Of a stretch of DNA of 64,000 bases, positions 10,628 to 59,893 are shown one piece after another; the stretch's first letter is position 1, and each line of letters starts with the position of its first letter. The position numbers and the translations under genes were made by a program. The stretch comes from Bacillota bacterium (GTDB lineage: Bacteria > Bacillota > Clostridia > Christensenellales > DTU072), in contig JAEXAB010000001.1 of the NCBI GenBank assembly GCA_023394875.1, positions 320,588-384,587 on the forward strand, in the 5' to 3' direction. The notes below the pieces were generated by a model. That model saw only the letters and a program-made list of their open reading frames with translations, ran no database searches and had not been told where the DNA came from.

Positions 10628-10629
10628 TT

Positions 10630-12251: not shown

Positions 12252-12261
12252 TAGTGTAAGC

Positions 12262-12715: not shown

Positions 12716-12748
12716 CAAAAAAGTAATGGCGGTTATAACTACCGCCAT
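12716..12748 (-). terminator. rho-independent terminator closing the minus-strand operon 19898..12784
   Basis: On the minus strand it reads ATGGCGGT-AGTTATA-ACCGCCAT followed by TACTTTTTTG. It lies about 35 nt after the stop at 12784. Confidence 0.65.
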
Positions 12749-12783
12749 ATATAATTAAGCTATATTTTTATTGTTAATATTTT

Positions 12784-13218: not shown

Positions 13219-13278
13219 AATTATCTCCTTGAGCTAGAAAACTCCTCGCGATAATAATATATTATTTACAGCACAAAT

Positions 13279-15051: not shown

Positions 15052-15060
15052 AACTACCTC

Positions 15061-16590: not shown

Positions 16591-16603
16591 ATCATTTGCT
16601 CCT

Positions 16604-16966: not shown

Positions 16967-18195
16967 TTCTGTTCCTCCAAAACAAACTCCACACTGTCGC
17001 TTTTGTTTAGCTTTAGGCTCAAACTGATTTTTTCCATTTCGGGCGGTTTAAGATTAGTATATTTCTTTTTGAAAATTTCCTCTCCGTTAACCGTTACGTG
17101 TAAGATAGCCTTTTCCATGTCCTTTTTACTGCGGAAATAAAAAGACACGTTTCCTTCTAAAGCGTTAATATCAAGCAACTGCGGCACAAGATACAGCATA
17201 CCTTTTTGCTTTAGGGAAATAAGTTCCCTTGTCTTTTCTTTACCGACGTTTTTTCCCGCAGTCTCACTCACTTCGGACACGTAGTCTACTAGATCGTGCA
17301 CGTGAAGGGCATTGCCTACGCTATATACGTTATTTATCTTCGTCATCATGTTTTGGTCGACAACAGGTCCTCTGGTGGTACAATCAATGGGTATATCCAA
17401 ACTTTCGGCAAGCTCGTTTTCAGGAATCAGTCCTACAGACACAATTAAGGAATCGCATTCTATATTTTCCTGCGTACCTTCTATTGGGTTCATTCTTTCA
17501 TCGACGCTCATTACTTCCACTTTTTCCACTCTCTTGTCGCCGAATATCCTCGTAACAGTCTTGGATAAGTGCAAGGGTATGTCAAAGTCGTAAAGGCACT
17601 GCTGAATGTTTCTGGAAAGGCCGCTCGGGGTGGATTTCGCTTCATACACACCCAAAACTTTGGCTCCCTCTAAAGTAAGGCGCCTTGCCATAATAAGCCC
17701 TATATCGCCGCTGCCTAAAATAACGCATTTTTTGGTGGGAAGATAACCGCACAAATTTACAAAGTTTTGGGCAACTCCCGCCGTCATAACTCCCGCCGGT
17801 CTTGTGCCGTGTATATTAACCTGTCTGGGCGTCCTTTCCCGACAGCCGTTGGCTAGTATAAGGCTATTTCCGTAATGGCTCTTTATACCTTCTTTGGACG
17901 TAGTGGTAATGACAAATAAATCCTTTTCTTTTTTGATACTGATTACGAAATTGAGGGTTTTTACCTCAATATTATCTCTTTTTTCCACTTCGGAAATAAA
18001 TCTGTCGGCGTATTCGGGACCCGAAAGCTTCTCCCCAAAACGCAACACGCCGAAACCGTCGTGAATACATTGCTTAAGTATTCCGCCAAGCTTGTCTTCG
18101 CGTTCGATTATCAGGACTTTCTTTTCTTTATCTACGCTTAGCGCCGCCGCAAGACCGGCAGGGCCGCCGCCGATAACAATAGCAGAATATATCAT
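16963..18195 (-). CDS. NAD(P)/FAD-dependent pyridine-nucleotide-disulfide-type oxidoreductase (second subunit of the same complex)
   Basis: The ORF is 410 aa. It has AIVIGGGPAGLAAA (FAD) and a second Rossmann motif, CVILGSGDIGLIMA. Confidence 0.75.
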   Translation of the reverse strand: MIYSAIVIGGGPAGLAAALSVDKEKKVLIIEREDKLGGILKQCIHDGFGVLRFGEKLSGPEYADRFISEVEKRDNIEVKTLNFVISIKKEKDLFVITTTSKEGIKSHYGNSLILANGCRERTPRQVNIHGTRPAGVMTAGVAQNFVNLCGYLPTKKCVILGSGDIGLIMARRLTLEGAKVLGVYEAKSTPSGLSRNIQQCLYDFDIPLHLSKTVTRIFGDKRVEKVEVMSVDERMNPIEGTQENIECDSLIVSVGLIPENELAESLDIPIDCTTRGPVVDQNMMTKINNVYSVGNALHVHDLVDYVSEVSETAGKNVGKEKTRELISLKQKGMLYLVPQLLDINALEGNVSFYFRSKKDMEKAILHVTVNGEEIFKKKYTNLKPPEMEKISLSLKLNKSDSVEFVLEEQK

Positions 18196-19907: not shown

Positions 19908-19936
19908 ATTATAACATGGCAAAAAATGACTGTAAA
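19908..19936 (-). promoter_or_regulatory. sigma-70-type promoter abutting the start codon at 19898 (leaderless-type arrangement)
   Basis: On the minus strand it reads TTTACA (19936..19931), a 17-nt spacer, then TATAAT (19913..19908). Only 9 nt (TAAGATATT) separate it from the ATG, and there is no Shine-Dalgarno. Confidence 0.55.
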
Positions 19937-19996: not shown

Positions 19997-21760
19997 CTAA
20001 AATATGTCAATGTCGGTAAATTTCCTATATTTCCCTATGGGTCTAAATGCCCATTTTGCGTACAAAACAACGTTTTTATCGGGCATATTATTAAGGCTTA
20101 TTAATTTGCTGTTTAAGGTATCCTCAAGGTACCAACCGTCGAATATAAGGGAGCCGAATTTTGCAGATGGAATGTCAATTTCTATACCTGCGCTACCGAT
20201 TATAGGGGCAATTTCATAGCCTATTATGTTGGTTACAAAACTGATTTTATAAGTCTTGCTGCGGTATATTACAATGAAAATAGTAAAGGCAAGGAGAGCT
20301 AATAAACAAACAATCAGTCCGATTATCCAGTACATTTGATAATCGTCGGCGTATATAACAAACATACCAAAGTTTTCGGGGCGGAAAACAATTTCATTTT
20401 GACTGTTTGTGGAAAACTCAATAGGCTTACCCGTTCCGTTTTCGTTATAATATAGGCGCAAATTCCTACCCTCGGGCGGTGTTATTACTATGGTTGTTCC
20501 TTCGGGTATGGAAAGAATTTCTCCTTCATAAATTAACGATACGGTATAGACTTCGGCTATCTTCCTGAAGATGTTTTCGCCTGTCTTTATGGTAGCGGAA
20601 TTGTTTCTTGCTACTACGACATCGGCTCCGTATAAAAACCCTTCCTGGCTAATCAAAGTAACCTTAAAACCTTCGTTTTGCACCGAAACAACGGGGCTTA
20701 GGATATTAATTTTTACGGTTACCACGTCGGCGGGCAGATAGTTTCCTGTGCCTATTGTGGTAATCTTAACGGTATAATTGCCTACGTCGGTAAATTTATT
20801 ACTGCCTAGCTGGTTGTTGATGATAAAAACGGCGTTGCGGTCTTCCTCTCCGTCCACACTATAGGGTATTACTAGGGGAGTACCGTCGTATCTTCTCTTA
20901 TAGGAGTTCTTTTCCACGTTAATAACGCTTTTTGCCTTATAAATAATTAATTCGGCGTAAAGGTTGTTTTTATCCATTTCGTATTCGCCGTTAAAAAGCT
21001 TATAATTATTTTTGTTATAATCAATTATCGCCGTAACTCTGTAACGACCCACGTTCTGGGCAAGATTACTTTGATACCTGATACTTACCGTACTCGGAAT
21101 ATTGCCCGAAACACTAAGGCTTTTTGCCTCGCCGTCATAAATAAACGTCCTGTCCTCAAAAACTATCCCGCTAATATCAATAATAGCCTTTTCAATGAGC
21201 AGCGTTGCATAAAGGGTTCCGCCGTCGATTACGTAATTGCCGCTCGGGCAAGTAAAAACGGCGCTGACTAAGTATTGCCCTGCTTGAGACTGGTTATTTG
21301 ATACGTAGCTTACTTCTATTTCATCGGGAAGATATCCTTCTATCTCCACGCTTTTTACGGTGCCGTCGTAAGTGAAAGTTTTGTTTTCAAAAAACAAATC
21401 CCTCGTGTCAAAAACCGCGGGGACTATGTTATAAGTTCCGCTTATTACCCGAATATCATAAGAAGGCAAATCATCATAAAGAATTGTTATTTCGTATTCT
21501 CCTACGTCGCCGCCCTCTTCTTTTATTAGTCTTATGTTTAGTTCTTCTATTTCGCTTGGACTAAGGCTAACTCCATTTATTGTATAGTCAAGCTCAACTA
21601 AATTATCTCCGTAAACTTGGGTTTTGTCGTTGGCAGTAATGATTACTTCACTTTCATCGGCAAAAGCATCAACGCTATTTTCCATAGAAAAAACTACTCC
21701 GAAAAATGCGCCTAATACTAACGCCAGAGCGAAAAATATGTAAGAAACTTTCTTCGACAC
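19997..21760 (-). CDS. secreted/membrane-anchored surface protein: signal peptide, about 4 MBG (YGX/YDG-type) domains, a beta domain, a TM helix, and a C-terminal Listeria-Bacteroides (Flg_new) repeat
   Basis: GTG start at 21760, with GGGAG 5 nt upstream. The signal peptide is VSYIFFALALVLGAFFGVVFS...VDAFA|DE. MBG-like modules are marked by QVYGDN, FTYDGT, FIYDGE and RRYDGT, each followed by ..G.Y.V.A....NY... The TM helix is YWIIGLIVCLLALLAFTIFIVIY (aa 476-499, nt 20264..20335). The tail YKISF...FDGWYLED...VVLYAKW matches the Flg_new repeat. Confidence 0.7.
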   Translation of the reverse strand: MSKKVSYIFFALALVLGAFFGVVFSMENSVDAFADESEVIITANDKTQVYGDNLVELDYTINGVSLSPSEIEELNIRLIKEEGGDVGEYEITILYDDLPSYDIRVISGTYNIVPAVFDTRDLFFENKTFTYDGTVKSVEIEGYLPDEIEVSYVSNNQSQAGQYLVSAVFTCPSGNYVIDGGTLYATLLIEKAIIDISGIVFEDRTFIYDGEAKSLSVSGNIPSTVSIRYQSNLAQNVGRYRVTAIIDYNKNNYKLFNGEYEMDKNNLYAELIIYKAKSVINVEKNSYKRRYDGTPLVIPYSVDGEEDRNAVFIINNQLGSNKFTDVGNYTVKITTIGTGNYLPADVVTVKINILSPVVSVQNEGFKVTLISQEGFLYGADVVVARNNSATIKTGENIFRKIAEVYTVSLIYEGEILSIPEGTTIVITPPEGRNLRLYYNENGTGKPIEFSTNSQNEIVFRPENFGMFVIYADDYQMYWIIGLIVCLLALLAFTIFIVIYRSKTYKISFVTNIIGYEIAPIIGSAGIEIDIPSAKFGSLIFDGWYLEDTLNSKLISLNNMPDKNVVLYAKWAFRPIGKYRKFTDIDIF

Positions 21761-21781
21761 AATATCTCCCTTATGCTTTTT

Positions 21782-21803
21782 CCCCCCGCCAAAAGGCGAG
21801 GGG
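21782..21803 (-). other. GC-rich 9-bp stem-loop between the giant gene and the MBG gene, without a U-tract
   Basis: On the minus strand it reads CCCCTCGCC-TTTT-GGCGGGGGG (one G-U pair), followed by AAAAAGCATAAGGGAGATATTGTG, which is the Shine-Dalgarno and GTG of the next gene. It is not a canonical intrinsic terminator. Confidence 0.5.
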
Positions 21804-21815
21804 AAAGAGTTGTTG

Positions 21816-24800
21816 TTATTTACTAGCTATATAGATATAGGTGTAAAGTACGAAGGTCTTAGGCGTCATACCTTGCTGCGCATAATTTCCGTTATAGATT
21901 GTTTCGGCATCGGTAGTGGTACCCATAGTTATTGAGAAGGTTGTTTCCACAAGGTATCTTGTACCAATCTGCGCCATGGTGTTGATTGCCGTAAAGTCGC
22001 CTATATTTATTCTGGTTTGACCGTTCATACGATAAACAGTGCTGTTATACCACGGTAGGTACGTTGCCGCAGATGAATTAAACGTTGAATAATCGGTACC
22101 TATCGTCCAGTTAACTCCCGGTATAGTCGTGTCCGTCTTAACAGAGAATACATAATTCATTTGGAACAAAGGTAGGTTCCTCAAGTTGAACATAGCACCT
22201 TGAGATATATAAAGGGTAGGTATGTTCTGTGTACCCTGAGTTCCTGCTTGCCAATAGTAATTGCTGGTTGCCGTCTGCTTAGCGTCGTCGTCATAGCGGT
22301 AGCCTTTTTCCAGCAATACGCCGGAGTTCTTATAGGATACTTCGTTTTCATCCACTGTCTCGTCGGAGTTGGGTACATACAGATAGTGTTTGTTGCTTAC
22401 AGCATCGGAGACGTAGAAGGATCTTGCCCCTGTTTCGTCTTTCTTGAATATGCTTGCCACTAAGCCTCTGCTCAACGGGTCAATATAGTGGACTATTGAA
22501 GAATCATAACCCGAAATAATTATTTCTCCGCCTATTGCAGTTGTGGAAGCAGGATACGCCCTTCTGCCTACCGCTCTCCAAGAGAGTATGCCTATCTGAT
22601 ATTCATTGACTAACTGGTTGTCGTTATCGTCCAGACCGAAGTCAAGGTTCTGTAATGATGCGGGACTAAAGGCGTTGGTATATACTTCTCTTTGTGAAAG
22701 CTCTCCGCTTGCTACGGTATCGAACCTTTCCTCATCGACTGGTTTTACCAGTTTGTAGTACTCAACAGGTATATAGTCGTTGTTGTCGGTAGAGAACAAG
22801 TTGTAAGACGTAGACATACCGAAGTATTGGATTAAGTTTTCGGGTAGCGCATACGTTGTGCCTTTAGGTATACTTAGTAAGCCGGGTACGTTACTGTTAA
22901 TCCAGCTTCTTGTGGAAGTATTGGACAGCTTCCAACGGAAGGTTTGTCCGCCCTTTCCACCCAAAGTAATGGTAGCGTACTGAGCTGCCTTATCGCCGAA
23001 CGCCACCGCGCCGAAGTACCACTTGTTATAGTTATTCCTATAGGTACCGCCGCCGTTTATGTTGGTTATCAAGGTTTCTTTGGCTACGCCGTTTACTTTA
23101 TAATGGACTCTATAGCCATAGCTTGCGTCATAGACAGGATGTCCGTTTTCTTCGTTGTATACCACTTCGATATAGAAGTCAGGGTTGTTAACCTCGGTTA
23201 GACTGCTTATCTTAGGTAACAATATGATATCATCAGGACCATAAGGCGTGGTGCTGATAAAGGCGTCTACAGCTCCTTCGGTGTCGAAGAACAGCCACGG
23301 GTCAACGGCAAACGTCTTGGTGTAGAGTTGGTCGTCAAGGCTCATTGTAAAGGAAGTTTTCCTCTCGGTGTCGTTAAAGTAAACGGTTATTTTGCCTTGA
23401 CTTGCGCCCGACCAAAGAGCTCCTGAATTATACTTGTTGCATGTTGCTAAGAAGGCGTTAATAGCCGCGCTGTTATTAGGCACCTTCATCATAGCGTTGA
23501 ACTGCTCGTAGCCTAGTTTGGTCGTGGTATAAATCATCACGTCATCGGGCATCTTCAAGCCGCCTAACTGAATGAAGTAATAAGGGTCAAGTATTCTCCA
23601 GTTGTTGATGTCGTCGTCATATTCTATCGCGCCGTCAACTATTGCGTTTTTATACCTATCTGCCGACTCGTCGGAAACAAGGTCGTTTAGAATGCTTCTG
23701 AAGTAGGTGTCATAGCTTATTTCATATCCGTCTTCGTTAATCGGATTTGCAAACACAATATATTCCTCGGTAAGATTGAACATAATCTGAGCGTTTTGTT
23801 GTCCTTTTGCGCCCAAACCGTAGCCGGGGATAACCATATTGAATCTAGCTTTGCCGCCCTTGTAGTTTAGTCCTTGAGTGGTGTCTAGAGTAAAGCTCAT
23901 TTGTACTGCGTTGTTATACGCTTTGCCTCTGCTGTCTACTCCGTTGGTTTCTTCGGCGGATAAGATATACTTACCGCTCGATTCGGCTATCTGGTTGAGG
24001 GTGTAGTAAATAGGATCGTTGAAGTCTTCAAAGTACACGCCGAATACTAAGGAAGTTGAACTGCTGAAGTGTTGGGCAATTAGCTTACTTTCTATATTGG
24101 ATTGTCCGATATAGTCGTATACGCTTATTGTGGTACCAAGTCCGATTGTGCCGTCTTTAAGAACGTTGGGAGTAAAGCCGTAGAAGCCTCTTGATACGTC
24201 AACTTTTCTACTTAATATCTTGACGGGGTATAGCAGCATTTGATATGAATTGCCGCTTCCGATACTTACTTCTACTTCGCCGGAACCACCTGAGTATCTC
24301 CAGAACATATCGGCATCGTAGAACTTGACGCCAAGTTTGTATTCTCCCTGTTCGGTTGCTAAGTTGTAGTTGATATAGTACTTGCCGCCTTCGGCATAGC
24401 CGGGCAGAGAACCGAACAACACGTCAAACTCCGTTCTCTCAAACTTTAGGACGGTATCATACTGACCGCCTGCCAAATAACCTTGCTGCGTTAAGGCATT
24501 AAAGCCCGAATCGGAATTGACGTACTTGACAAACGGGTCAAACTCAAAGCCCTTTACTGTGGTAGTTGTGTTGCCCGAACCAACGGTAATGTTCTTGAAG
24601 TTCGGAGCGTTAGTAGCGTTAAAGCCAAAGTCGCTTATGGTACGGTTGACATAAACAATCGGTATACTGAATTTCTGAACGCCCGCGTACAAGGTTTCGT
24701 CTGAGTTACCAAAGGTAGCCACTAGCTTGCCTGCGCCGCCGCCGTAATTAATCTTGCCGCCCGACCTTCTCAGCTCTGCGCTCAAAATTGCGCCGCTTCC

Positions 24801-27800
24801 GCTTACCGAAGTAACTTCGAAGTACTTGTTGTTGATGTTGCTTCCGTCATAGTTAATTTCGCTGAATCTGTAGCTTACAAGTTCTTCTCTCTCCCCGTTA
24901 TTCAAGCGGTAATAGTCTTCCTTGTCCGCGCCGTAGATTGTTACGTTGGTTACCTTGGAGCTGTAAACCACGCTGGTTTCAAACTGGATTGCGCTGCTTC
25001 CCGAACTCTTAATAAGTCCGTATTGGTCGATATAATAAATATCCTTATTCAGACCGCTTCCGGCAACGTACTTCATATTAAGGATTCTTGCCTTAATATT
25101 GGTATCAAATTTGTCTTCCTCGGTGCCGCCCTTCTTTAACGGAGCGATATTGATATCCAACGCCTCTTTAGCGCAACTTAATACAGCTCCAACACTTGCG
25201 TTCATATTCTCGGACACTCTGAGTTTAATAGTGACGCTTCTCCCTGTGTAAAGGTCAGTCGTTTTGGTTGCGTAATTTGTTGAAGTGTCGTAAATAGTGT
25301 AATTCGCTGCCGTAAGGTTATAGGTACGGGTATAGTTGTCGGCGCCGTTTGTTACTATTCTTACGTTTCTGAAGTAACTAAAGTGCGCGCTTGAGAAATC
25401 TTCGCTGTAGACGTTGTCGGGAGCGTTGAACCTCGGGTCTCCGTTTAACGCGTTACGCATCGTGTAAGGATTGAGCAACAGTTCGTTGGTAGCCTTGAGT
25501 TCGTTTACGCTGTCGTTGTACAGTAAGTTGTCAAGGTCGATAAAGTCAACGCCGTTGTAGCTTACCTGATACTTCTGTATACTACGGTCGCGTACCACTA
25601 CGCTTATCGGGATAACTTGGAGTATTCTTCTGCCTATTACGGCTCCCTCTTCGTCATAGTCGGTATCATAAACTTTGGCGTAAACTATTTCGTTGGTATA
25701 GTCTTTGTCAAATACTCCGCCCGCTAAGGTCATGTTGCTAGCAAACGCCGCGTAATCCCATTCTACGGGTATTTCTCTTTCTCTGACGTTGCCTTGATAG
25801 TCTATAGAAATTACCGCATTTAGTGTACTGGGTAGTCCAATAAAGCCTTCAAAAGGTTCCACTATCAAGTTGATTAGTTGCTTGGTGTTAACGTTGTAAT
25901 TAATTCTTTGATAATTAACTCCGCTTTGTCCTTCCACAACCTTAAGCTCTACTACTTGCGCCCTATTAATATAAACGGTTACTTCAAGTTGCTGTCTTAA
26001 TATGCCTTCTCCGATAGAAGCGATAACGGAATAGGTGCCGCCGCCTGTGGTATAGACAATGTTTTCTATGCCTTCCCACTCTATAGTGTTTACTTGAGTA
26101 AGTTCGCTGCCGCTGCCGTAAGCTACCCAATAGGTATAATCGTCAAAGTCAACTCTGTTATAAATATCGCCGCTTAATTCCACAACGTCGTTGCCGTCTT
26201 TAATGAACAAGCCCGAAACCTTTCTCGACCACAAAGTTACGTCAACTATCTTTTCCGAACGAATGTCGAACTGACCGTACATGCCGTTAGGTACGCTTAC
26301 GCCCATATAGAAGGATACTTTGTAGGTTGCCTGGTCAAAGTCGTTAGCTACGTAGGAATATAAATCAATGTCGTTTACGTCAACTTTTACGGTAACTTCC
26401 TTAGTGGTGTATTTCACTGTGCCGTTATTATCGATATAGCGTGTGTAAACTAAGCAACTGGTGTTGTTAGCAACCAACCAATCGATATTCTCAACTCCGT
26501 AAGGATCAAGATAGATATCTTCGCTGATACCGCTTATTACGTTAACTATTGTTTCTTCGCCGATATTTAGCTCTACTTCCCTGTACAGATAACCAAACGT
26601 AGCGTCGCCGATTACCGCGGTAGCTCTGGGCATTTGTCCGTTTTCTTTCTTGCCGGTATAATCGTATGTCTCTATTCCTCTCCAGCTTACGCTCAAGGTT
26701 TCGCTTTCCGAAACGCCGTTTCTTACGCCGGTTACTGTGGCTCTGGTAGGCAGTTTTGTGTTAATATCATCGTAAGCGGTTGCTATCTGATTATTAAAGT
26801 TTACTACTTCCCATTGTCCCGTTCCGCTGTTGAATCTCTCATAAACGATATTGGAAATAGTGCTGAACTTCCTTATAGCGGTATTGCGTAATACTACGGA
26901 TATAATTTGTCTGTTGTTGTGCTTGGTCCCGAAAGTGATACTGCTGTTTACTGTAGCCTTGCTGTAGAACTCGCTGTTATTGGATAAATCAATTAAACCT
27001 TTTATTGTGCCCGTCGTTCCGTCGGCGTATCTAACGGTAAATATTACGTTTTGTTCTTCGCCTAACTTAATAACGGCAGGGTCAATAGCCAGACTAATGC
27101 TTCCGCCAATGTTTTCTATCGGGATATTTACTCCGTCTGTTGTCGCGCTCTCAATAGAGGTAATAACGGTATTCTTTTGGATGTTGGTAACAATGTAAGA
27201 ACCATTATTGTATTTAATAACCTTAGTTAGATCGATTATTATCCATCTGCTCCATCTAGCTCCCACCTGAGTTATGGAATCATAATTCTTGCTGCGTACA
27301 AGCACCTTTATAGAATGTGCTCCGTTAGCAGTATTGTTGTGATAGCTGATACCGTCGTCGGTATAATCGTTGTTGCCGTTGGTGTCGTAAACGTATTCCC
27401 AACGTACTTTTCTAAACTCGGTGCCCTCGTATAATTCGTCAAGGGTATCCAGTTCCCAAATGGCGTTGTCGAAGTTATCTCTGCTTCCAACCTCGTCGCT
27501 TGCTATGCCAAAACGTGTTCCCGCAGTGGTGCCGTCTTCTATTATCAGACCGAAGTTATATTCTCTGGTGTTGACTTTGTCGTCGTTATAGTACAATCTT
27601 AAGAAGTTGTCTATGGTAGCTTCGCTGTAGGTATTGATGGATATCGTAGCATTGTAATTAAGATATATTTCTCTTATGTTAACTTGTTTTACTTGGATTA
27701 CCACACCTCTTATTAGCTGGTCGCCGAACAGACTGTCTTTTAATAATACTTCGGCATAAAGTATGGTTCCGTTGTAACTCAAATTTTCGTTGATATTTTC

Positions 27801-30800
27801 TAAATCAACCTTCCAGATTATTTGAGTCTTCTTCAGGTCAAGTACCGTCTTGTTGGTAACTTCTCCGGTTATAGGATCGACTATGGTTTCTATCTTCTCT
27901 ACTCCGTCAAAACCAACGTTTATAAATCTACCTAAGTCTTCCATAGTAATGGTGCTTAAATCGCTACCGGATACGCTCTTTGATTCCACGCTCTTAGCTA
28001 CTCTTCTTTCCACTGACCTACTGATACTCAAGCTCTTGCGTGAATACTCGTTATACCATTTATCCCAAGTGCGGGCTTGTAAGCTGGTGTTGGATTCTCC
28101 GAAATTAGCTGTTCTTACTTCCTCGAATACTTCTTTCAACGCGTCTACTGAAATCTTATTGTTCTCAACTTTGACGTTGCTGTTATCTGCAATCAGTTTT
28201 TCATAAGCTAAAGACTTAGCCGCGGTGATGCTAATCGTGGTGTAGGTAAGTTTTGCTTCTAGCAGTACGGTATCAAGATACAATACCGTATTGTTGTTGT
28301 AGGTATCCTTAGCGGTATCGCTGTACTTATCGTACCATACGTCCCAAGCTCTGGCTTTGTTGTTGTCTTTATTTTTGAGAATTGCCGCAAGCTCTAATTT
28401 TTCGAACTTAGTTAGATTGTTATAAACAGCGTCATAAGCCTTCTCTTTTGCGTTATTAAGAGAATATCTAATAGACAGATTGTTGAGCATAATTTCTGTC
28501 AACATCAAGTCCATATCCAGCTTGCTATAGCCGTTTTGTCCGATGGATGCATAAATCGTGGTATCCAAACTGCGGTTGTAACTCATATAAGGAATACTGT
28601 AGCTAAAGCCGGTACCATTTATGGCAATAACTCCGTTCGCTTCAAACTTGCCGGTCATCTGGTTGTAAGTTGCGTATGCCTTATTAGCTTGAGTATATTG
28701 TCCAAGAACGGCTTTTTCATAGTATCCGCTGGTGTATACAACGTAGATTTCTTCACTTAGACCCAATCTGTTGATATAAGTATCGTTAATGGTATCGATA
28801 GGACTTAAATCGCTACCGGTGTCATAAGGAGTAATGACCTTGTTGTTTTCGATATAGACCTTGGTAGCTCCGTTATAGAAGTAGCTTGCGCCGCTCTGAA
28901 TGTCGCTGGAAAGTATCTTTATTAGAATCTTGACGGTCTGAACGTAGCCCGTACCATCGGTTATATCGTAGCTTATAGCATAGTCTTCTGCCTTGGTGCT
29001 AAGGGTCTTATAGTCGTTTAAGGTCTTGCCGTTAAGTTTTAGGAACTTTAAGCTACCCTCGATAATCTCCCAATCCTCGACAATGTCGCCGCATTGTACC
29101 GTTACTCTGTCAAAGGAAGTAATACCCTTTACTGTTGCAAGCGGGTTGTTGTTATACAGAGGATTAATTGTCAACATTCCGTGATAGCCTTGCGGCACGT
29201 TAGAATCATAAACTATTCCGCCAACGGTGTTTTCCACTTCGCTTTCCACTTTTACAAGCTCGTAATTCTTAATGGTAAGCGGTATCTTGACGTCGGTGAA
29301 CTCGGTATTGGACGATAGTTCTTTACCCTCGCTGTCATAGCCGAAGGAACGGAAGCTTAAATCAATATAGGGCTGTTCGTCGGCAAACGGACTATTGTAT
29401 TTCATAGAGGTAAAGCGTCTTATGGAATTAACGGTCTGATAATCCAAACTCCACTTCAAATCATTGAATATATAAGTCTTTTGTCTGACGTTGCCTTGAT
29501 TGTCGGTATTTGTATAGTTGTAATTGAATACCAAAGGTAGGGACGCTAAGAACTCTTCGGCGTCAAAGGCTCTGGGATTGATTACGATATTGCTTATTTT
29601 GTCAATAATCTGCGCTTTGGCTTGATTTACGTCAATTTCAAACGGCTCGATTACTACTCTTACAGTAGAGCATACCGCATTGCCGATATATCCTTGCAGA
29701 TAAACGGTTTGTCCGTTCGTGCCTTTCGCGCTGGAACCTAAAGCGTCGATATTCCAGGTTATCTTCATACCTTGAGTACCCTTGGAAGAACCGTCGGTAA
29801 AGGTAGCGAAATATCTGTTCGGCAATACGTCTATTATGGAAACAGTAGAATCTACGTTCCTTCTTACTCCGATAAAGCCATCGGAATATGCCCAGGTTCC
29901 GCCCTCTACGGTAAAGTCGGTAAGGTCAAACGGGTCATGGAATATTATCCTTGTCGGTAAGGTGCGGATTTCTTTGGTCCAAACAGCCATAACGGGCTCT
30001 ATAGAAATATGCCAGAACTCTCCGTTAAAGGTGGTGTCGGATACCTGACGGATATCCATACCGTTAAGGTCGATATCTACTTCCTGATAAATATCCTCTT
30101 TGGGATTCTTATTGTTGTCATAGATAAATATTCTGTCGTAAACAACCTTATCGCCGGTAATAGGATGCAAATAATAGGTATCGCTTATCGCATAGGATTG
30201 GTAATTGGACTTAGCGATAAACTCTTCCATAAACTTCTTAGCGTTAATATCTTCCACACCCGCTGAAACAATTTGTCTGGTTTGGATATCACAGCTCTTT
30301 ATTTCGTAAGTAGCGGTAGGATCTGTCTTGTAGGTATATGATCTCTTAGTGACGACATCTGATTCCACTCTTTCTTCGTAGTACATTCTTTCCATTACTT
30401 CGCCGTTTGAGTTGGTGGTCATCTCGTATTCCTGTCCACTGGTCTTGGACGTTTCGAACTCAGGAAGATTCAACTCTTCACGGTTGGAAGAAACGTTGTG
30501 GTAATAAAGCTGAACGCCTCTGTTCCTGTATTCATTGGGGTCTTCGTCGGACATCAATCCCTTCATGTTTATGGTATATGCGTTTTCTTTTACAACGGAA
30601 TAGAAGGATCCTATTCTGCCGCTCTTCTTCCAATAAGCATAATCCCAATCGCCTTGCTGCATTGCGCTGTAAGACGGCATCTCGTTTTCTTCGCGCAGAG
30701 CAATTTTTTCGCTGTTCTCGCTAAAGCTTGAGCCGTTGATAAACAGGCTTATTCTGTCGATATATCCGCTTTCGGAATCGCTGTTTAAGGTAATCTTCGC

Positions 30801-51800: not shown

Positions 51801-54800
51801 ATCCTTGTAGAAATTATCAAAGAAGTAACTAAGCGTCTGTTGCTTCATTACCGCATCCATTAAATTACGCTTGGAAACATAATAATCGGCAGGGTCAATA
51901 TAGTTGCTTGCCGTCTCATTGTACATCAAATCCCAAAGTAAGCTAACAGCTCCGGTATAAGTACCGGCAAGGTCGGAAATTGTGACAGTGCTTATACCGA
52001 AGTAAGATAAATCGATGTAAGCTTTGTTATCTTGAATATAAATACCGGCTATTACTTTATAGGTATTGCCGTCTTTTGCAGAATACCCTAAGCTGTCTAG
52101 TATGTTGGTATCAAATAAAGCTATGGTAAGATCACTTGCCAAAAGGTCGTTAATATTGATATTGCCCACAACCGCAATACCGATGTTAAGTCCTCTGTCA
52201 TAGTAATAATTGTTGTTCATTCTAAGAGCGATAGAATTTAGTAACTGATATATGAACCCGCCTTTAGCCGCGTCTAATTTCAATAAATCTACCAGCATGC
52301 CCGGGAGATTTTCGTTTAATTTGTCGGGCTCATAAATAAGTTCGTTAGCGCTTAAATTTAAGTGTACTTCCAGATTGGCGGAAATAATAAGCGTCTGCAT
52401 CCAATCGGTTATGGATACATAACTTGTAGAGCTGTGACCGCCCACAAAAGTGATTTCCGATCCTTTCTTTATAGAAAGGGTATCAATGAGGTTTAAGTTT
52501 AGATAAAACGCCTCTTTTTCGGTGCCGCCACTGTCCACAATGCCGATATGAGCGGTTATATATCCGCTGTCTTTTAGATGGGCTACTGCATCGGCAAGCT
52601 CAAAGTCCGCCCAGTTTAAGGGAGCGCCGGTCTGGTCGTAAGCATAGGGTAAGCCCTCTTTAACCACGTACAGCTGCTTGAATTTTTCTCCGTTGGAGTT
52701 GATTATTTCGTTTTCATAGATGAGATTGCCGTCCTTGTCGTATTGCAAAGCGGTGCCTAGATGTAGATATATACTTCCGTTGACTTTGGGGAGCTCTCCC
52801 GATAAATCCAACTTCATAAATTGTAGCAAGACCGAAAGGACTTGGGCGTTCATAATGACGCCTAATCTGCCGTCGGCAATACTCACTCTGTCTAAAGCGC
52901 CGGCAATAAGGTCCAATATGCTATTACCGTCGGTTGTAACTTCAACCTCATCGGAATTTGCCACGGGACTGAACGCCATAGATGCATTGACTACCCCCAA
53001 TAAGCCGAAAATTCCACTAAGATCCAAGCTCATGTTTTCCAGCATGCTCTTAATGCCTACATTCTTAATGCTTATCTTCGGAATGGCGCCGTCAACTATT
53101 TTGGTAATGGGCAGAACTGACCCTAATTGCGTTACCAGGTCATAGCCTTCTTTAACTTGCGTGTTGAGATAGAGGGTATCTTCGTTACCTGAGAAATACA
53201 AGCTCATGAAAGGATAAGGCTCTCTGCTACCCGGTGTTTTTATCAGATACAAATCAATTAATAAGCCAACTTCGGAGAACTTTAAGAGGTTTATACCTGC
53301 CTGAATTTCATACTCTATACTTAATCTGCTGGTATTTTCTATACCCAAAGACAGGAAGACGTTATTAACAAATGCCCCCACAATGGCGGACAAATCCAAT
53401 TCGGTGCCTCCCGAACTACCCAGTTCCACATTACCGGTAATCTTCGCCCCGTATTCCATAGAGCCTGACATTGACTTAAAGTCGGCGCGCAACGCTTCGG
53501 CATTTTCCATTACGTTGCCGTTTTTGTCTATACCTATCGCAGTAAAGTCAAAATTAGGCTTTTTGATTAACGACAAGCCTGTATTATAGGTGCCGTCTTC
53601 GTTGGTGGAGCCTAAGCCGATACTTAGTCTTAGTGACTCTGTAACGCCAAGGTTAATTCTTATGGAATCAAGAGGGTCTTTTAGGTCTATGGACAATCCG
53701 AAATTATTAATACCAATATCAACATTGGGTATGAACAGCCCCAATAAAGAGTTGATACCGTAATTGTCAAAACCAATGGAGAATATGCTTTCCCCTTTAG
53801 GCGGGAAATGCAAATATTTTAGATTGCCGTTGTTGTCCTTTGTAAGTAACAACGTCAATAATCCGTTCAAATCAAAACCGCCCTCTTCATCTTCCTCGGC
53901 ATTGGCGGCGTTATTGGGACGCGTCGCCGTCGTGGTGTTGGGATGATACGGGTCGATATATTTCATATATTCGGACAGTAATCCGGGAATTTCGTTACTG
54001 CCCGCCAGAACTTGAGTTATATTCAAATTCGGCAATCGCAACTGCGGAATAAGGCTCTTGCCTCCGCTGGTTAGGTTATGGGTGTCGATATAAAGGGTAC
54101 TAAATAAAACCGTACTGCCCGTTTGCATAGACAAATCGGGGGCAAGATAAAGGGCAATTACCTCTCGGTTGTTATAGTTGAAGCTAACTTGGGCTTTGTT
54201 GTTGGCGTTATTGAACAAGTCAAGAGAAGCAGCGACTTTTACGTCAAATTCATAATTAGTATCCCCCGCAACCTCAATAGGCATATTACCTAATGCCCCT
54301 AAGTCTCCCAGCATATTGCCAAGCAGACTGTTAATGGTCAATTCTTCGGTGGTATCGTTTTCCACCTGCATTTTGGCGTTTAATTCTATGTTGGTAAAGC
54401 TACCTTGGCTATAAACGGTGCCTTTACCTGCCGAACCGAAGTTATATCCCGCCATTTTTATGTCAACGGAGTTGGTGTTGCTTGTCTGCAGCTTGAAGGG
54501 GCTTACAGTCAACTCAACGTCATATTCGTTTGTGGCGCTGTCGATATCAAGACCAAAACCGTTAAAGATGTAGTCCTGTTTGGAAGTGCCGTCGGCTTGG
54601 GCTACTTTGCCCATCTGCGTTACCGCATAAAGCCTTGCCGTCATGCTAGGCCATTTCTTGTTGATTATGTCTTCCAGACCAAATCCAAGGATAGGTCTTA
54701 ATATATCGTCCATATTGGAAGGAAGTCCAAAACTTTCCCAACTGATTACTAGATTTAGGAAAGTACTGATGCTAATCTTCCCTTTCATAATCATGCCCAT

Positions 54801-55575: not shown

Positions 55576-55605
55576 ATTATACGTCCTAGCGCTCGTATGT
55601 GTCAA
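55576..55605 (-). promoter_or_regulatory. near-consensus sigma-70 promoter dedicated to the giant gene
   Basis: On the minus strand it reads TTGACA (55605..55600), an 18-nt spacer, then TATAAT (55581..55576). An AT-rich (TA)n/UP-like tract lies upstream at 55615..55637. The predicted leader of about 45-55 nt contains GGGAGGAG and the GGAGA Shine-Dalgarno. Confidence 0.65.
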
Positions 55606-55723
55606 TAGCTTTTTTGATATTATATAAATATATATATGCCAAAAAAAGCCGCTTTTGGCATTCTTAAAAGAGTCTTAAAAAAGGGGCTGTTTTGTAAAAA
55701 AATTTTATGCTTGCTTTTTTGCG

Positions 55724-56581
55724 TTATTTTCCAAAAACAGACCATTTTTCGGTGTAACAAAATTCACCGTTTTTTGGCAAAAATTGAAAACCGGAAAGGG
55801 TCTCTATTTCGTGAATATAGTTATTGCAGTAGCACTCAAAATTACAAAAATAATCGGGGTAGTTCAGGTTGTCCGTAGCGGACAGTTCTTTAATAAAGAC
55901 CTGCGTTATGTCGCCTTCTGTCAGCACATACTTTGCCTTAATATTCTTATTATAGGCTCCTATTTTGAAAGGATTAGTTACCTTATCGCTTGATTTAACG
56001 ACAATTTTGTCGTCTTCTAATTTTAGTCTGTCATCAGCAAGAGAAGCATACGGCCAAAGCACGATATTCCTGTTTGCCAAGAATCCGGTATCTTCTTTTG
56101 AGAGTTCAAAAGTCATTTCTCCGCCGCTCTTCATTACCGTAAGAGCCCACAAACAAATGTGCCTTTCTTCCCCAAGATTGGTTATTTTATGGGTAACGGA
56201 AATCTCATCGTTACTCAAAAACTCCACCTCCAGCTCAGGCTGCACCAAAACCTTAGCCCAAGGGCGGGGACGGAAGGTAACGGTATTATTTTTTACAAAA
56301 TATTCCACCTGGTCGTTGTCGGGATAGTACGTAGAAATGTCTTCCGGGCTTAGCCAAAGCCTGTGTCCGCCGTAAATATGCCACCTTGCGCCCTCTCCGT
56401 AATAGGAGGAGCAATCCTTGCTTATAACATCGTTTACGTCCTCAAACATGACGTTAAAACCATCTTTTTTCTTTAGTCCGATTATACGCGGTCCAACGTC
56501 CAAAGTAACAGTTAATTCAATATTATTATTGTCTAGTAAAATTGTCCTGCCCAAGAAGCAGTTGCCGAAATTTACGTTCAA
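55724..56581 (-). CDS. hypothetical cytoplasmic beta-sandwich protein, possibly galactose-mutarotase-like (DUF4380-like)
   Basis: The ORF is 285 aa with a TTG start at 56581 and GGGAGG 7 nt upstream. It has no signal peptide. The motif HIYGGHRLWLSPE and the overall beta-rich pattern recall aldose-epimerase-like folds. The assignment is tentative. Confidence 0.35.
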   Translation of the reverse strand: MNVNFGNCFLGRTILLDNNNIELTVTLDVGPRIIGLKKKDGFNVMFEDVNDVISKDCSSYYGEGARWHIYGGHRLWLSPEDISTYYPDNDQVEYFVKNNTVTFRPRPWAKVLVQPELEVEFLSNDEISVTHKITNLGEERHICLWALTVMKSGGEMTFELSKEDTGFLANRNIVLWPYASLADDRLKLEDDKIVVKSSDKVTNPFKIGAYNKNIKAKYVLTEGDITQVFIKELSATDNLNYPDYFCNFECYCNNYIHEIETLSGFQFLPKNGEFCYTEKWSVFGK

Positions 56582-56594
56582 TTTTTCCTCCCGA

Positions 56595-59500
56595 TTAGCT
56601 TAGAACTATCACTATTCTGCCTTCTCCAAGCATTATATATTCCAAAATTTCCACGCTGCCGCTCAAGTCAACTTCGGCTATTATTTCGCCTATTGTGGTA
56701 CCGATTAGATACTCATCGGCTAATTTTACTTCTATATAAACCTTTTTAATAAGCGCGGTTCCAAAGCTGTTTAACAGGTCGTTAAGGTTAGCTATTGAGC
56801 GGATAACCAAACCGTTATTATTTACTGTAGTAGCGTTATAAAAGTCATAAGAGTAAGGAGTGTCGGGATACTCTCCGAAAAGAACCGCCGATGTATAATA
56901 ACTGCTAACGTTATTTTCGGTCATCATAAAGTATTTGTGGTTGGCATACTGAACGCCGCTTATATCTCTTTTTATGCCGTAAGTGGCGTCTACGTAATAA
57001 TACTCTCCGTCGATTAAAACCTTGTTAAAACTGTGTCCTACGCCGTCAACCGTCAAAGACACTTTACTGCAAACAATGCCTTCGATTGCGCAAAGCAAAG
57101 TCATAGCTTTGGCTATACCGTCGCACACCGCTTTATTGTTGTTGAACACCCCTTCTAAATGGAAACTTTCATAATTATACACGCTGTATGCGTCTTCCTC
57201 TTCGTTTTCCAACAAGGAAAGAATATTAAAGTCGTAAGCCGTCGTAGTAGTGAGATAATCAAAGAACGCCAGTACCTTTTGTCTGTCGGTCATACTACCG
57301 TCGATTATGCTCCTTACCACGTTTTTCGCCTTCCTGTAAACGGTAGCAACCGAATCATTGGTAGGCATGGGAGAATAGCCGCCTTCGGCTGCGCTGTAAA
57401 GTTGGTCAGTGGTACTAACGTTTACATCGTTACGCATATAGATATAAAAATTGTCGTAGGCTTCGCCGTACGGATTTTTGGAATAATATACCGAATCTCC
57501 CTTAATTACAGCTATACTTTCGGTATTTTTCATTGCCTGCGCCTGAACGGTCTTCATTATCGTTACGTTATAAGAATTATCTTCGTTATTATAACTAAGC
57601 AACATCTTGTACTTGCCCGTTTCACAATAGCTTTGTTGGGCGCCCAAAAGCATTTTGTAAAGGTCTAAAAGCTCTGCACCCACAACGCCCTCTTCTATAC
57701 TTACAGGGTATTTTTCGGCTAGATACTCATCATACTCTATCCCTAATACTAACCTTACGGTAAAGGCATTATACAGTATTTCACCTTCGGTCTTGATTTC
57801 ATATTTTACGTTAGGATTGCTTGTGGGATTATTGAGCATTATATAGTCTAAAATCTCTCCAAGCTCCCTTACCGAAAGCACGTAGCTGTTTACGTTGGAC
57901 GTTATCGTCTTGAGATAAGAATAATGCTGTTCACTTATTTTGCCGAAATAATATTGCTTGTCGTCTTCGGAATCGGCAGCTTCTCCATAGAAATACCTCT
58001 CGGAGAATACGCCTCCCTTCCTCTTTACCCTAACAGAGAATTTGTCGTTCAAAGTAACGATACTTTGGGGTACATTGACGTAATCGGCGCCAAAATACTG
58101 CGGATTATCGGCGCTGTCTATCAAATAAATATCCCCGTTTTCTTTTATTATCTCCACAACGTAACCAGAGCTTGGCGATAAAAGATTCCAATGTATATTT
58201 ACGAAAATATCTTCGGCTTTATTAACGCCGTCAATAATAAGATAATTGACTGCGGCTTTATTGTTTACCGTATATTCATAGTTATAGTTAGTAAGATTTA
58301 CTATATCGCTTTCGTATTCTCCGTCGGGAGTGTTGCCGAATACTCTTATTATACCGGTACTTCCCTCATACGGCACACCGTCAACCGCCCCCACTACACC
58401 GTCTAACATTGATAGAGCGATGAGTTCTATATTGCCGTTTTGGGTGAGAGGATAATAAAAGTTCTTGCCGTTAACCGAATCTCCCACAAAAGTGGAGCCG
58501 CCTATTCTTTCGCCGTGTTCGTCTAGTGTATAAACATACCAGTTATAACTTTCGGGTTCCAAGCCGAACTCTCTGACCTGCGGGTTAATAATGAGGGTAT
58601 CCCCTGTCATAAACCGTGTCACCCCGAAATCAAAATTCTCTCCCGCGCTTACCGTGTTGCCTAAAATATCCTTACCTTCGGCAGTCAAAGTAAAGTCGCC
58701 GTCAATATTTAATCGTCTGGTTAAATCCTTGTCCTGCACAAGAGTTTGACCAACGTAAACTCCTTTTCCGATAGTGTTCTTCTTTTTTAAGTACCATTCG
58801 TAGTAAACGACGTTGCCCGAAGCTGTCGTCAAAGCGAACGTTACCTCATCACCGTATTGATAGGCGTCGTTTGAAGAAACGTAATTGAGCATGTTTAAGT
58901 CAAACCCGACAAACCTGTTGTAAATGGTGATTTTATCGCTTATTAATATTTGCTCCTGCTCTTGATACGGCATTACCCTTACGGTAACGTTATAGGAAGT
59001 TCTTGTAGAAACGTTGGGAATATGTTGATATTGGTCTTTATTGTCCATACCAATAACTTTTTCGCTGTCCACGTACCATTGAATACGCGGATTGGGGTCA
59101 CTATGTATGTCAAGTTTTACCAAACTGAAATTAATAGTCTTAGGATCTCCCAACACCTGATTGTATTGCGGATTGGTATCGGTTACCTGCAGACGGTATC
59201 TTCCCTTAGAGTATTTTACGCTGACGGGGAGCATTCCTTGAATTTCTTTACCGGCAGAGGTCTTGCATATAGCCAAAATATGCGTCATTCCCACAGAGAT
59301 AGGAGTTACCACACCCATGCTGGAAACTGTGGCAATTTGTTCGTTAAGGGAAGAATAAGTAACGGCTCTGCCGTCTTGGGCGTGCTGGGGAGAATAAATA
59401 ACATCCAGCTGAACACCGGTACTGTTATAGAGCATCTCTATACTGGATTCGGTAAAACTGACTTCCTTTACGGCAACGTATTCTACCACGATGTTAATTT

Positions 59501-59855
59501 TCAACGTGGCTTTCTTGTTCGTGGAGGAAGTAACGGTGAGCGGGACTTTCATTCCTTCTTCGGTAGTAAGCAAAGCGGTAACAAGCCCGTTTTGGTCTAC
59601 CGACACGTACTTTAGATACTCCGAAGGAATATAATAGTTCAATTTTCTGTTTGTGGCGTTTTGGGGCAAAATCTCCACGTTTAACTGCTTTTTCGCTGTT
59701 TCGCCCGAGGGAGAGAGATAAACATTGGCTGATTCTATGCGCAGAGTCTCTACCTCGACGTATCCGTCGGGCAATTGGGAACAACCGCTTATGGCAAAGA
59801 CCAACATAAATACGGCGATTAAGAATGCTAACCTTAATATAACACTTTTACGCAT
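56595..59855 (-). CDS. 1,086-aa lipoprotein with N-terminal Big_2-type Ig-like domains and a C-terminal transglutaminase-like (Cys-His-Asp) core
   Basis: The signal peptide plus lipobox is MRKSVILRLAFLIAVFMLVFAISG|C. The Big_2-like segment (VTYSSLNEQIATVSSMGVVTPISVGMTHILA) lies in aa ~35-215 (nt 59211..59753). The TGase-like core is AVCDGIAKAMTLLCAIEGI...GHSFNKVLIDGEYYYVDAT, aa 909-958. The Cys911 codon was verified at 57125..57123; His is at 941 and Asp at 956. Confidence 0.7.
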   Translation of the reverse strand: MRKSVILRLAFLIAVFMLVFAISGCSQLPDGYVEVETLRIESANVYLSPSGETAKKQLNVEILPQNATNRKLNYYIPSEYLKYVSVDQNGLVTALLTTEEGMKVPLTVTSSTNKKATLKINIVVEYVAVKEVSFTESSIEMLYNSTGVQLDVIYSPQHAQDGRAVTYSSLNEQIATVSSMGVVTPISVGMTHILAICKTSAGKEIQGMLPVSVKYSKGRYRLQVTDTNPQYNQVLGDPKTINFSLVKLDIHSDPNPRIQWYVDSEKVIGMDNKDQYQHIPNVSTRTSYNVTVRVMPYQEQEQILISDKITIYNRFVGFDLNMLNYVSSNDAYQYGDEVTFALTTASGNVVYYEWYLKKKNTIGKGVYVGQTLVQDKDLTRRLNIDGDFTLTAEGKDILGNTVSAGENFDFGVTRFMTGDTLIINPQVREFGLEPESYNWYVYTLDEHGERIGGSTFVGDSVNGKNFYYPLTQNGNIELIALSMLDGVVGAVDGVPYEGSTGIIRVFGNTPDGEYESDIVNLTNYNYEYTVNNKAAVNYLIIDGVNKAEDIFVNIHWNLLSPSSGYVVEIIKENGDIYLIDSADNPQYFGADYVNVPQSIVTLNDKFSVRVKRKGGVFSERYFYGEAADSEDDKQYYFGKISEQHYSYLKTITSNVNSYVLSVRELGEILDYIMLNNPTSNPNVKYEIKTEGEILYNAFTVRLVLGIEYDEYLAEKYPVSIEEGVVGAELLDLYKMLLGAQQSYCETGKYKMLLSYNNEDNSYNVTIMKTVQAQAMKNTESIAVIKGDSVYYSKNPYGEAYDNFYIYMRNDVNVSTTDQLYSAAEGGYSPMPTNDSVATVYRKAKNVVRSIIDGSMTDRQKVLAFFDYLTTTTAYDFNILSLLENEEEDAYSVYNYESFHLEGVFNNNKAVCDGIAKAMTLLCAIEGIVCSKVSLTVDGVGHSFNKVLIDGEYYYVDATYGIKRDISGVQYANHKYFMMTENNVSSYYTSAVLFGEYPDTPYSYDFYNATTVNNNGLVIRSIANLNDLLNSFGTALIKKVYIEVKLADEYLIGTTIGEIIAEVDLSGSVEILEYIMLGEGRIVIVLS

Positions 59856-59864: not shown

Positions 59865-59893
59865 AATATATTACTTTCTATATGTTTTGTCAA
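59865..59893 (-). promoter_or_regulatory. promoter of the transglutaminase-like lipoprotein gene, abutting its start codon
   Basis: On the minus strand it reads TTGACA (59893..59888), a 17-nt spacer, then TATATT (59870..59865). Nine nt (ATTATTACT) separate it from the ATG at 59855, and there is no Shine-Dalgarno. Confidence 0.55.

Follow-up and report, generated by a model that had tools for sequence, protein, structure and literature searches.

We describe a gene cluster built around a giant lipoprotein gene in a 64,000-nt stretch of DNA (hereafter the window) from a Bacillota bacterium of the Christensenellales (assembly GCA_023394875.1, contig JAEXAB010000001.1, positions 320,588 to 384,587). 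A preliminary description of this DNA had read four adjacent genes as a single surface locus, with a transglutaminase-like (TG-like) lipoprotein, a 285-amino-acid (aa) protein and an MBG-domain membrane protein serving as accessory factors of the giant protein. Comparison with related loci supports a conserved core of three genes and not four, namely those for the TG-like lipoprotein, a mutarotase-family homologue and the giant lipoprotein, which make up a lineage-restricted envelope cluster of Christensenellales. These bacteria are abundant and mostly uncultured in gut, rumen and digester communities, and in the genome described here 34 kb code for a single protein that is illegible to current domain libraries.

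Conservation of the upstream genes

Related loci are designated by L numbers. Immediately upstream of the giant gene, the window, L001 (85% identity), L009 (67%), L012 (50%) and L008 (40%) all carry the TG-like and mutarotase genes. In the deepest clade, with ~25% identity of the giant protein, the majority of the distant relatives possess a five-gene cluster in which a ROK gene and a PIG-L deacetylase gene stand between mutarotase and giant: the order TG, mutarotase, ROK, PIG-L, giant is found in L018, L013, L025 and L027/L028, and likewise in L017, where TG is cut at the contig end. L026 has a cut TG gene followed by mutarotase, PIG-L and giant. Altogether, TG-like and mutarotase genes precede the giant gene in 11-12 loci, spanning the deepest split of the family.

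The surroundings of this block are not constant. Its upstream bounds are mrnC/SpoU (window, L008, L012, L018, L025), HipA (L013) or YchF/BacA/Amidase_3 (L027), and four different genes occur downstream while the block from TG to giant holds. The persistence of the block between changing flanks is better evidence of selected co-location than the short intergenic gaps. The accessory role proposed for the neighbours in the preliminary description is consequently divided: the TG-like and 285-aa genes keep their place upstream in most relatives, with the exception of one clade of six loci that has neither, and the MBG gene is not conserved, being absent from distant loci.

Two further loci were considered as lacking TG and mutarotase and were rejected as such. 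L003 (a shortened upstream open reading frame (ORF), PIG-L, then giant) and L015 (a ROK-sized 440-aa ORF, a PIG-L-sized 268-aa ORF, then giant) lie on cut contigs and carry the gene or genes that follow TG and mutarotase in complete loci.

A different neighbour occurs in the clade without the two upstream genes. In four of the six loci the gene next to the giant gene on its upstream side, and co-directional with it, encodes a ~280-aa PP-loop ATPase (ATP_bind_3, TilS/TtcA-like), and FeoB is divergent beyond that gene. The ATPase may be a replacement neighbour, or the giant gene may simply have come to lie at a new insertion site.

The downstream MBG gene

The 587-aa product of the gene that follows the giant gene has a signal peptide, an MBG_2 domain at aa 40-109, a transmembrane (TM) segment at aa 477-499 and a repeat at aa 538-569. 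The earlier assignment of this protein to MBG and Flg_new holds for MBG_2 (34.5 bits, cutoff 25); Flg_new falls below its Pfam cutoff (19.6 bits against 27), though TIGR02543 List_Bact_rpt passes (21.6 bits, cutoff 20.95). Its proposed role as a partner of the giant protein did not survive comparison. In the four contexts retrieved, the order is giant C-terminus, MBG, glpA, Pyr_redox, glpK; these represent the same lineage with the same syntenic housekeeping flanks, and the adjacency of MBG is therefore functionally uninformative. MBG orthologues were found only at 53-78% identity, the next matches being unrelated MBG-domain proteins, and no orthologue below 53% identity was present among 5.8 billion proteins. 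In the three complete distant loci there is no MBG homologue downstream of the giant gene, which is followed by a 2,046-aa RCC1/Big_2/Big_3 protein in L025, by AP_endonuc_2 and then a Big_2 protein in L026, and by an aminotransferase in L027. We infer that the MBG protein is a surface neighbour, either unrelated or of recent recruitment, that is specific to its lineage and stands outside the conserved cluster. A short co-directional gap alone, as seen for this gene, is a poor predictor of partnership.

In L025, too, a second large surface protein follows the giant protein, one unrelated to MBG: the 2,046-aa protein combines RCC1 repeats with Peptidase_M6, Big_2 and Big_3, and a 224-aa Big_3 protein is encoded after it (L025:32004-38799).

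The giant lipoprotein and its family

A 33.7-kb open frame cannot originate by chance, and the giant gene is real, since its ORF is intact in independent assemblies and in colinear orthologues. The identical downstream MBG gene was found on 7 contigs from different assemblies, the longest being 517 kb, and colinear intact orthologues of the giant gene are present in more than 20 Christensenellales/Clostridia contigs. The probable true start is the ATG at 55514, with GGAG 9 nt upstream, giving 11,232 aa, the length at which the source record calls the protein. A scan of one genome per species of GTDB yielded 14 giant-gene loci, all in metagenome-assembled genomes from rumen, sheep gut, digesters and habitats of that kind, which bear the labels Christensenella, Christensenellaceae, Christensenellales or Clostridia. 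In 9 species the giant ORF is intact, with few gaps and 35-60% identity over a colinear 4,550 aa. Six full-length relatives of 7,125-7,879 aa, all with a lipobox, are colinear with the giant protein of the window from first to last residues at ~25% identity.

Direct searches reached few of these sequences. The N-terminal 1,200 aa matched only four proteins among 5.8 billion, and a profile of the same part retrieved 63 clusters from a set of 1.84 billion protein representatives. The C-terminal 1,200 aa had no match in the 5.8 billion proteins, in a search whose word index lacked relatives that do exist. Two aberrant copies were noticed in the family. In L002 (1392-6482) the homologue ends at 1,696 aa inside the contig, and its close relative L005 exceeds 4,548 aa; in L017 (3797-9763 / 9806-17500) two ORFs of 1,988 and >2,565 aa take the place of a single gene. 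These copies could be truncated or pseudogenised genes, natural splits or assembly errors.

At a distance that corresponds to 73% identity for SpoU and 72% for glpA, the figures are 67-71% for the giant protein, 65% for mutarotase, 58% for TG and 55% for MBG. Because the value for the giant protein is near those of SpoU and glpA, this protein is under housekeeping-like constraint and is no fast-evolving antigen.

The proposal that the giant protein is a lipoprotein agrees with the visible lipobox (...ISVAAC), whose Cys29 is invariant in 9 orthologues; a [LVI][ASTVI][GAS]C lipobox after a signal peptide is present in both the TG-like and the giant protein. The mature protein has a mass of ~1,248 kDa, an isoelectric point of 4.5 and a single hydrophobic segment, the N-terminal signal peptide, which rules out internal TM helices. 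We predict export via the lipoprotein signal peptide and anchoring at the outer face of the membrane by the acylated N-terminal Cys.

No Pfam family exceeds its cutoff anywhere in the 11,237 aa, and PDB sequence and profile searches over all parts of the giant protein produced no significant match. The only family match is a CarboxypepD_reg-like domain, which scores as a full hit in relatives and has weak PDB profile hits. We found no paper on the giant family, DUF4380 or TTE1925. The giant protein ranks among the largest predicted bacterial lipoproteins and the largest domain-less proteins.

Cryptic modules of the giant protein

Despite the lack of recognisable domains, the N-terminal two-thirds of the giant protein are built of degenerate units. 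Between aa 97 and 7061 there are at least 12 β-rich core modules of ~75-110 aa with a basic spacing of ~305-320 aa, each ending in …[VI][LI]x[ILV]YY…LY[IVL]DLSxxG…. Our first hidden Markov model (HMM) of the module was partly circular, having been built from motif-picked copies, and its leave-one-out scores were modest; the case for modularity was therefore rested on hhalign comparison with reversed controls and on independent proteins. In an all-versus-all hhalign of ortholog profiles, 81 of 1,431 window pairs scored above the best of 1,431 reversed controls. With the module HMM, three distant relatives each gave 8 copies (independent E-value <1e-3), and reversed sequences gave none. Copies are also present in two shorter paralogous lipoproteins of the β module, P0076 (3,340 aa) and P0078 (2,664 aa), with 4-5 significant copies and up to 10 matched stretches, and the module family therefore reaches beyond the giant orthologues. 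Neither paralogue has a Pfam domain, and P0076 carries Cys-rich inserts (e.g. CGCECTDCLNAAFCDGTKCKSGCTCDCH).

Pairwise comparison of the giant protein with itself reveals little of this repetition. Self-BLAST gave one weak internal pair only; the single pair visible to BLAST or phmmer, aa 123-207 against 6993-7071 (54909-55161 against 34317-34664; 32-36% identity, E ~3e-6), joins the first module to the module just before the CarboxypepD_reg-like domain. A model of one unit made with AlphaFold2 (AF2) from aligned orthologous and paralogous units has long antiparallel strands with a predicted local distance difference test score (pLDDT) of 74-88, and 57 overall; AF2 applied to aa 1-1200 with 5 sequences gave a pLDDT of 38 and was of no use. 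Foldseek with the unit model found nothing significant in PDB (E 6e-3 or worse, TM-score 0.19-0.29), the top matches being LolB, LolA3, DUF1329 and LolA.

The stretch at aa ~4100-5940, which has no counterpart in the 7,100-7,900-aa distant relatives, looks like a lineage-specific insertion or expansion, or else has diverged beyond detection. The LYxDLS module does not occur there; helix-type ‘AW’ elements are more frequent in this stretch and also recur at aa 2186-2267/2774-2831 and 2704-2800/4065-4283.

Taken as a whole, the giant protein is predicted to be a soluble, strongly acidic, modular molecule of ~1.25 MDa with a single anchor. The cryptic modules make the expression of its fragments feasible.

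The TG-like lipoprotein and the mutarotase homologue

The Big_2 domains and transglutaminase-like Cys-His-Asp core claimed for the 1086-aa protein were both recovered above Pfam cutoffs (Big_2 52.8 bits, ~aa 40-201; Transglut_core 23.3 bits against a cutoff of 23). In an alignment of 7 TG homologues with 28-74% identity, the lipobox residue C25 and the triad residues C911, H941 and D956 are invariant, and the TG orthologue of L025 also matches Transglut_core. Cross-linking or trimming of the giant protein by the TG-like lipoprotein, as proposed in the preliminary description, would be compatible with the invariant triad. The joint occurrence of this lipoprotein, its triad intact, and the giant protein across the family, one clade excepted, lets an enzyme-substrate pair be hypothesised, possibly the Gram-positive equivalent of LapG-LapA control.

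The 285-aa protein has no signal peptide, in keeping with its earlier description as a cytoplasmic β-sandwich protein; that description was incomplete in missing a mutarotase-family relationship. With no Pfam match, the protein shows full-length homology to the NCBIfam TTE1925 family mutarotase (NF052227; E 2.9e-52) at 177.6 bits, far below the equivalog cutoff of 550, and so represents a distinct subfamily; we regard it as a mutarotase homologue at the family or superfamily level and not an equivalog. Weak matches to DUF4380 occur in 6 of 8 homologues, with DUF6786 weak also, and the motifs WHIYGGHR.W.SPE, NRN.V.W.Y and IHE.E.LS are invariant among homologues.

Predicted transcription units

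All statements on promoters and terminators derive from pattern scans of the sequence and do not describe transcripts. In every lineage an intergenic region of 200-450 nt precedes the giant gene. For the window and for L025 and L027, this region contains one or more terminator-like hairpins followed by a promoter matching the consensus at 11-12 of 12 positions; in L009 there is a 12/12 promoter, and no upstream hairpin was found. Because a terminator-like hairpin and, in the window, a 12/12 promoter separate the 285-aa gene from the giant gene, the conserved cluster would comprise two transcription units and not one operon. The first unit would consist of TG-like and mutarotase genes, with ROK and PIG-L where present, and end at the terminator-like hairpin, and the second would consist of the giant gene under its own near-consensus promoter. 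Such a promoter suggests strong expression of the giant gene. In the window lineage, the MBG gene is probably transcribed by read-through behind the giant gene.

Possible functions of the cluster

What could this cluster do? We tentatively favour, at a little under an even chance, a conserved three-gene envelope cluster in which the giant protein would form an extended surface fibre or coat with a part in attachment or in the architecture of the envelope. The target of the TG-like lipoprotein, whose triad is retained and whose tether places it in the same compartment, would be the giant protein itself or the neighbouring wall. Processing or release of the giant protein, after the manner of LapG, is one possibility, and its immobilisation by isopeptide bonds is another.

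A number of observations weigh against this proposal. The terms ‘fibre’ and ‘adhesin’ are backed by no fold or domain, given the overall AF2 score of 57 and the non-significant fold matches, and the surface location of the giant protein assumes a monoderm envelope. In L005, L016, L011, L006, L007 and the L002 fragment, TG and mutarotase are missing within 6-10 kb, and FeoB or the PP-loop ATPase lies upstream; tight linkage in cis is thus not required, the giant ORF being intact in six species without the two adjoining genes. According to the distance matrix of giant proteins, the six loci form one clade, sister to the window lineage and excluding the TG-bearing L008, and therefore one relocation or loss accounts for all of them. 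Conservation of mrnC/SpoU adjacency in many loci means that slow rearrangement could explain part of the conservation, and the giant gene is a separate transcription unit in every lineage checked. Finally, it is not obvious how mutarotase, ROK and PIG-L, which are sugar-type proteins of the cytoplasm, would act on an exported protein; they are not explained by a LapG-like model, which keeps alive both an independent operon and polymer capture as rival accounts.

The broader claim of the preliminary description, that all four genes constitute one functional unit with the MBG/Flg_new protein as co-adhesin or membrane partner and both upstream genes as dedicated accessory factors, is highly improbable, and the comparative data already refute it as a family-wide feature. 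The genes are indeed co-directional, the 55-nt gap between giant and MBG without a U-tract terminator makes read-through likely, and MBG follows the giant gene in four relatives; those four are close, however, with giant C-termini 70-87% identical and glpA, Pyr_redox and glpK syntenic as well, the complete distant loci have other genes in this position, and MBG evolves faster (55%) than the giant C-terminus (70%) in the same pairs. A purely historical account, in which TG-like and mutarotase genes with or without ROK and PIG-L form an independent operon for amino-sugar or cell-wall turnover beside an unrelated giant gene, deserves more weight, though we still consider it unlikely. The separate promoter and terminator in every lineage checked (promoter only in L009), the retention of the giant gene without these neighbours in one clade, the coherence of mutarotase, ROK and PIG-L as a sugar-handling set and the general synteny suggested by mrnC/SpoU are what this account would lead one to expect. 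It is less easily reconciled with a TG-to-giant block that stays intact while both flanks change (mrnC, HipA or YchF on one side, four different genes on the other) and does so at ~25% identity of the giant protein, where unselected gene order is normally lost, nor is an exported TG lipoprotein, like the giant protein in this respect, a cytoplasmic sugar enzyme.

The sugar-type genes might alternatively point to nutrient capture, with the giant protein as a surface binder of a polymeric glycan or glycoprotein, the TG-fold lipoprotein acting as an amidase or protease of PNGase type that frees glycopeptides or amino sugars, and mutarotase, ROK and PIG-L processing the imports. Co-location of three sugar-type genes with two exported proteins, a CarboxypepD_reg-like domain of a kind common in carbohydrate-binding surface proteins, and the rumen, gut and digester habitats fit such a scheme. 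We nevertheless regard it as improbable: no version of the cluster includes a transporter, a glycoside hydrolase or a known carbohydrate-binding module, ROK and PIG-L have been lost from the window lineage, in which the giant gene persists, and the ROK protein may be a regulator, not a kinase. Very little credence, in our view, attaches to a further reading opposed to that of an adhesin, under which the giant protein would be an envelope machine of a new kind, a membrane-anchored rod of megadalton size with about a dozen open-β-sheet units (LolA/LolB- or β-groove-like). The rod would serve as a conduit or scaffold across the wall of Gram-negative-staining Firmicutes, the TG-like lipoprotein would fix it covalently to the wall, and the amino-sugar enzymes would supply or recycle the attached wall component. 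The modelled unit, with its long antiparallel strands, may be compared with LolA/LolB-type open β-sheet lipid carriers and AsmA/TamB-like β-groove proteins; its fold match is not significant and is a lead only, and the AsmA/TamB families of Pfam have no match in the giant protein.

Relation to known systems

The Lap system, in which the transglutaminase-like cysteine protease LapG releases the giant adhesin LapA of Pseudomonas and LapD is the cyclic di-GMP receptor (PMC3032545, PMC4359373), is the only well-studied precedent for trimming. The resemblance lies in a very large surface protein genetically tied to a Cys-His-Asp enzyme of transglutaminase/papain-like fold in the same extracytoplasmic compartment. 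Here, however, the TG-like protein matches Transglut_core and not the LapG/BTLCP family, its Pfam matches at E<0.01 being confined to Big_2, Big-like and Transglut_core. The giant protein is a lipoprotein, unlike LapA, an RTX adhesin with a retention module secreted by a type I secretion system (T1SS). Pfam finds no RTX in it, T1SS genes are absent from the window and related loci, and no neighbour in any locus is a GGDEF, EAL or HAMP protein that could represent a LapD-like receptor. The host is a Firmicute, unlike Pseudomonas. Every Lap feature tested (BTLCP, T1SS/RTX adhesin, LapD) being absent, the TG-like/giant pair may work like Lap without being a member of that system.

Huge bacterial proteins are mostly nonribosomal peptide synthetases and polyketide synthases or repeat adhesins (PMC11573180), and the surveyed giants of Clostridia are arrays of RCC1, Listeria-Bacteroides-repeat, dockerin and similar domains (bioRxiv 10.1101/2023.11.21.568195). 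The giant protein of the window shares megadalton size and a signal-peptide-predicted surface location with repeat-built giants, such as those of Clostridia and Ebh of Staphylococcus aureus, and with the former also an origin in gut or anaerobic Clostridia. It differs in that its modules are visible only to profiles and not as recognisable Pfam repeats, and in being anchored by a lipobox instead of LPXTG, SLH or a TM segment. The recognisable tandem Ig-like or helical repeats of the Big, cadherin or FIVAR type that define repeat-array adhesins are not seen in it. The best NCBIfam match of the TG-like protein is the Mycoplasma MAG6410 family of transglutaminase-related lipoproteins (NF045980), which likewise combine a lipid anchor with a transglutaminase-like core; only the ~140-aa core aligns, at 47.8 bits against a cutoff of 450, and the Big_2 domains and ~600-aa middle region of the TG-like protein are unrelated. 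A giant surface protein beside a TG-fold enzyme is thus an arrangement of a known kind. What is new is the giant family itself, together with its lipid anchor, its conserved partners and a modular build that lacks recognisable domains.

Layout of the locus and flanking genes

The four minus-strand ORFs given in the preliminary description coincide exactly with ORFs in the window, and the gaps and signals listed there were all found: the 13-nt gap with a Shine-Dalgarno sequence, the giant promoter, the hairpin without a U-tract and the glpA promoter. The Shine-Dalgarno sequence of the 285-aa gene is GGGAGG, 13 nt past the TG stop codon. In the gap between giant and MBG, the hairpin is followed by an A-run (no U-run) and then by the GGGAG Shine-Dalgarno sequence of the MBG gene. 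Feature coordinates are collected in the table.

Features of the giant-gene cluster. Positions refer to the window unless a locus is named; aa, position in the encoded protein.
Feature	Position (nt)	Strand	Position (aa)	Remarks
TG-like lipoprotein gene	56595..59855	-		1086 aa
Mutarotase-family gene	55724..56581	-		285 aa, TTG start
Giant lipoprotein gene	21816..55529	-		11,237 codons
MBG / Listeria-Bacteroides-repeat membrane protein gene	19997..21760	-		587 aa, GTG start
Promoter-like site of TG-like/mutarotase unit	59865..59893	-		TTGACA-17-TATATT, 11/12
Terminator-like hairpin closing TG/mutarotase unit	55636..55661	-		10 bp stem, T-rich tail
Giant-gene promoter	55576..55605	-		perfect sigma-70 consensus TTGACA-18-TATAAT
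G+C hairpin in 55-nt giant-MBG gap	21782..21803	-		CCCCTCGCC-tttt-GGCGGGGGG; not called as terminator
glpA promoter	19908..19936	-		
TG-like lipobox	59781-59783	-	Cys25	signal ...FAISGC
TG-like Transglut_core	56985-57323	-	845-957	full profile length
TG triad C911	57123-57125	-	911	AVCDG
TG triad H941	57033-57035	-	941	GH[SA][FW]N
TG triad D956	56988-56990	-	956	D[AVS]T
Giant signal peptide with lipobox	55443..55514	-		MKSNLLKFIILALCIVMLISVAAC; start of product of 11,237-codon ORF
Giant N-terminal two-thirds	33750..55277	-	85-7260	degenerate ~310-aa units
Giant module 1	54945-55241	-	97-195	
Giant module 2	54003-54290	-	414-509	
Giant module 3	53052-53375	-	719-826	
Giant module 4	51912-52247	-	1095-1206	
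Giant module 5	49752-50090	-	1814-1926	
Giant module 6	48540-48869	-	2221-2330	
Giant module 7	47586-47918	-	2538-2648	
Giant module 8	45330-45650	-	3294-3400	
Giant module 9	44340-44684	-	3616-3730	
Giant module 10	43554-43832	-	3900-3992	
Giant stretch without counterpart in distant relatives	37710..43232	-	~4100-5940	~1,850 aa
Giant module 11	35322-35615	-	6639-6736	
Giant module 12	34347-34664	-	6956-7061	
Giant CarboxypepD_reg-like β-sandwich	32829..32957	-	7525-7567	27.5 bits against 32.3 cutoff
Giant C-terminal β-rich third	21819..32822	-	~7570-11237	~3,700 aa; colinear with distant relatives to last residues
PP-loop ATPase genes	L005:8798-9649, L011:5065-5931, L016:5935-6768, L002:183-1034			

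The flanking genes are ordinary, as had been claimed. On one side lie mrnC, divergent at 59960 and identified by a Ribonuclease_3 match, a SpoU methyltransferase gene and genes for Fer2/RACo-like and FAD proteins; on the other, a glpA-like operon with its own promoter contains the glpA-like gene, followed by Pyr_redox, glycerol kinase and further metabolic genes. Rfam revealed no RNA elements at the locus, its single match in the window being a tRNA outside it.

Elsewhere in the window, after a GntR/FCD regulator, an 827-aa glycyl-radical enzyme resembling pyruvate formate-lyase adjoins its radical S-adenosylmethionine (SAM) activase, and a second small radical-SAM/Fer4_12 gene is located near the tRNA (12507-12580, minus strand). 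These genes (7208-10627 and 12784-13218) have no relation to the giant-gene cluster. A weak N-terminal BON match of the glpA-like DAO/Fer2_BFD protein (18198-19898; 23.7 bits, below cutoff) is a feature not usually seen in GlpA-type dehydrogenases.

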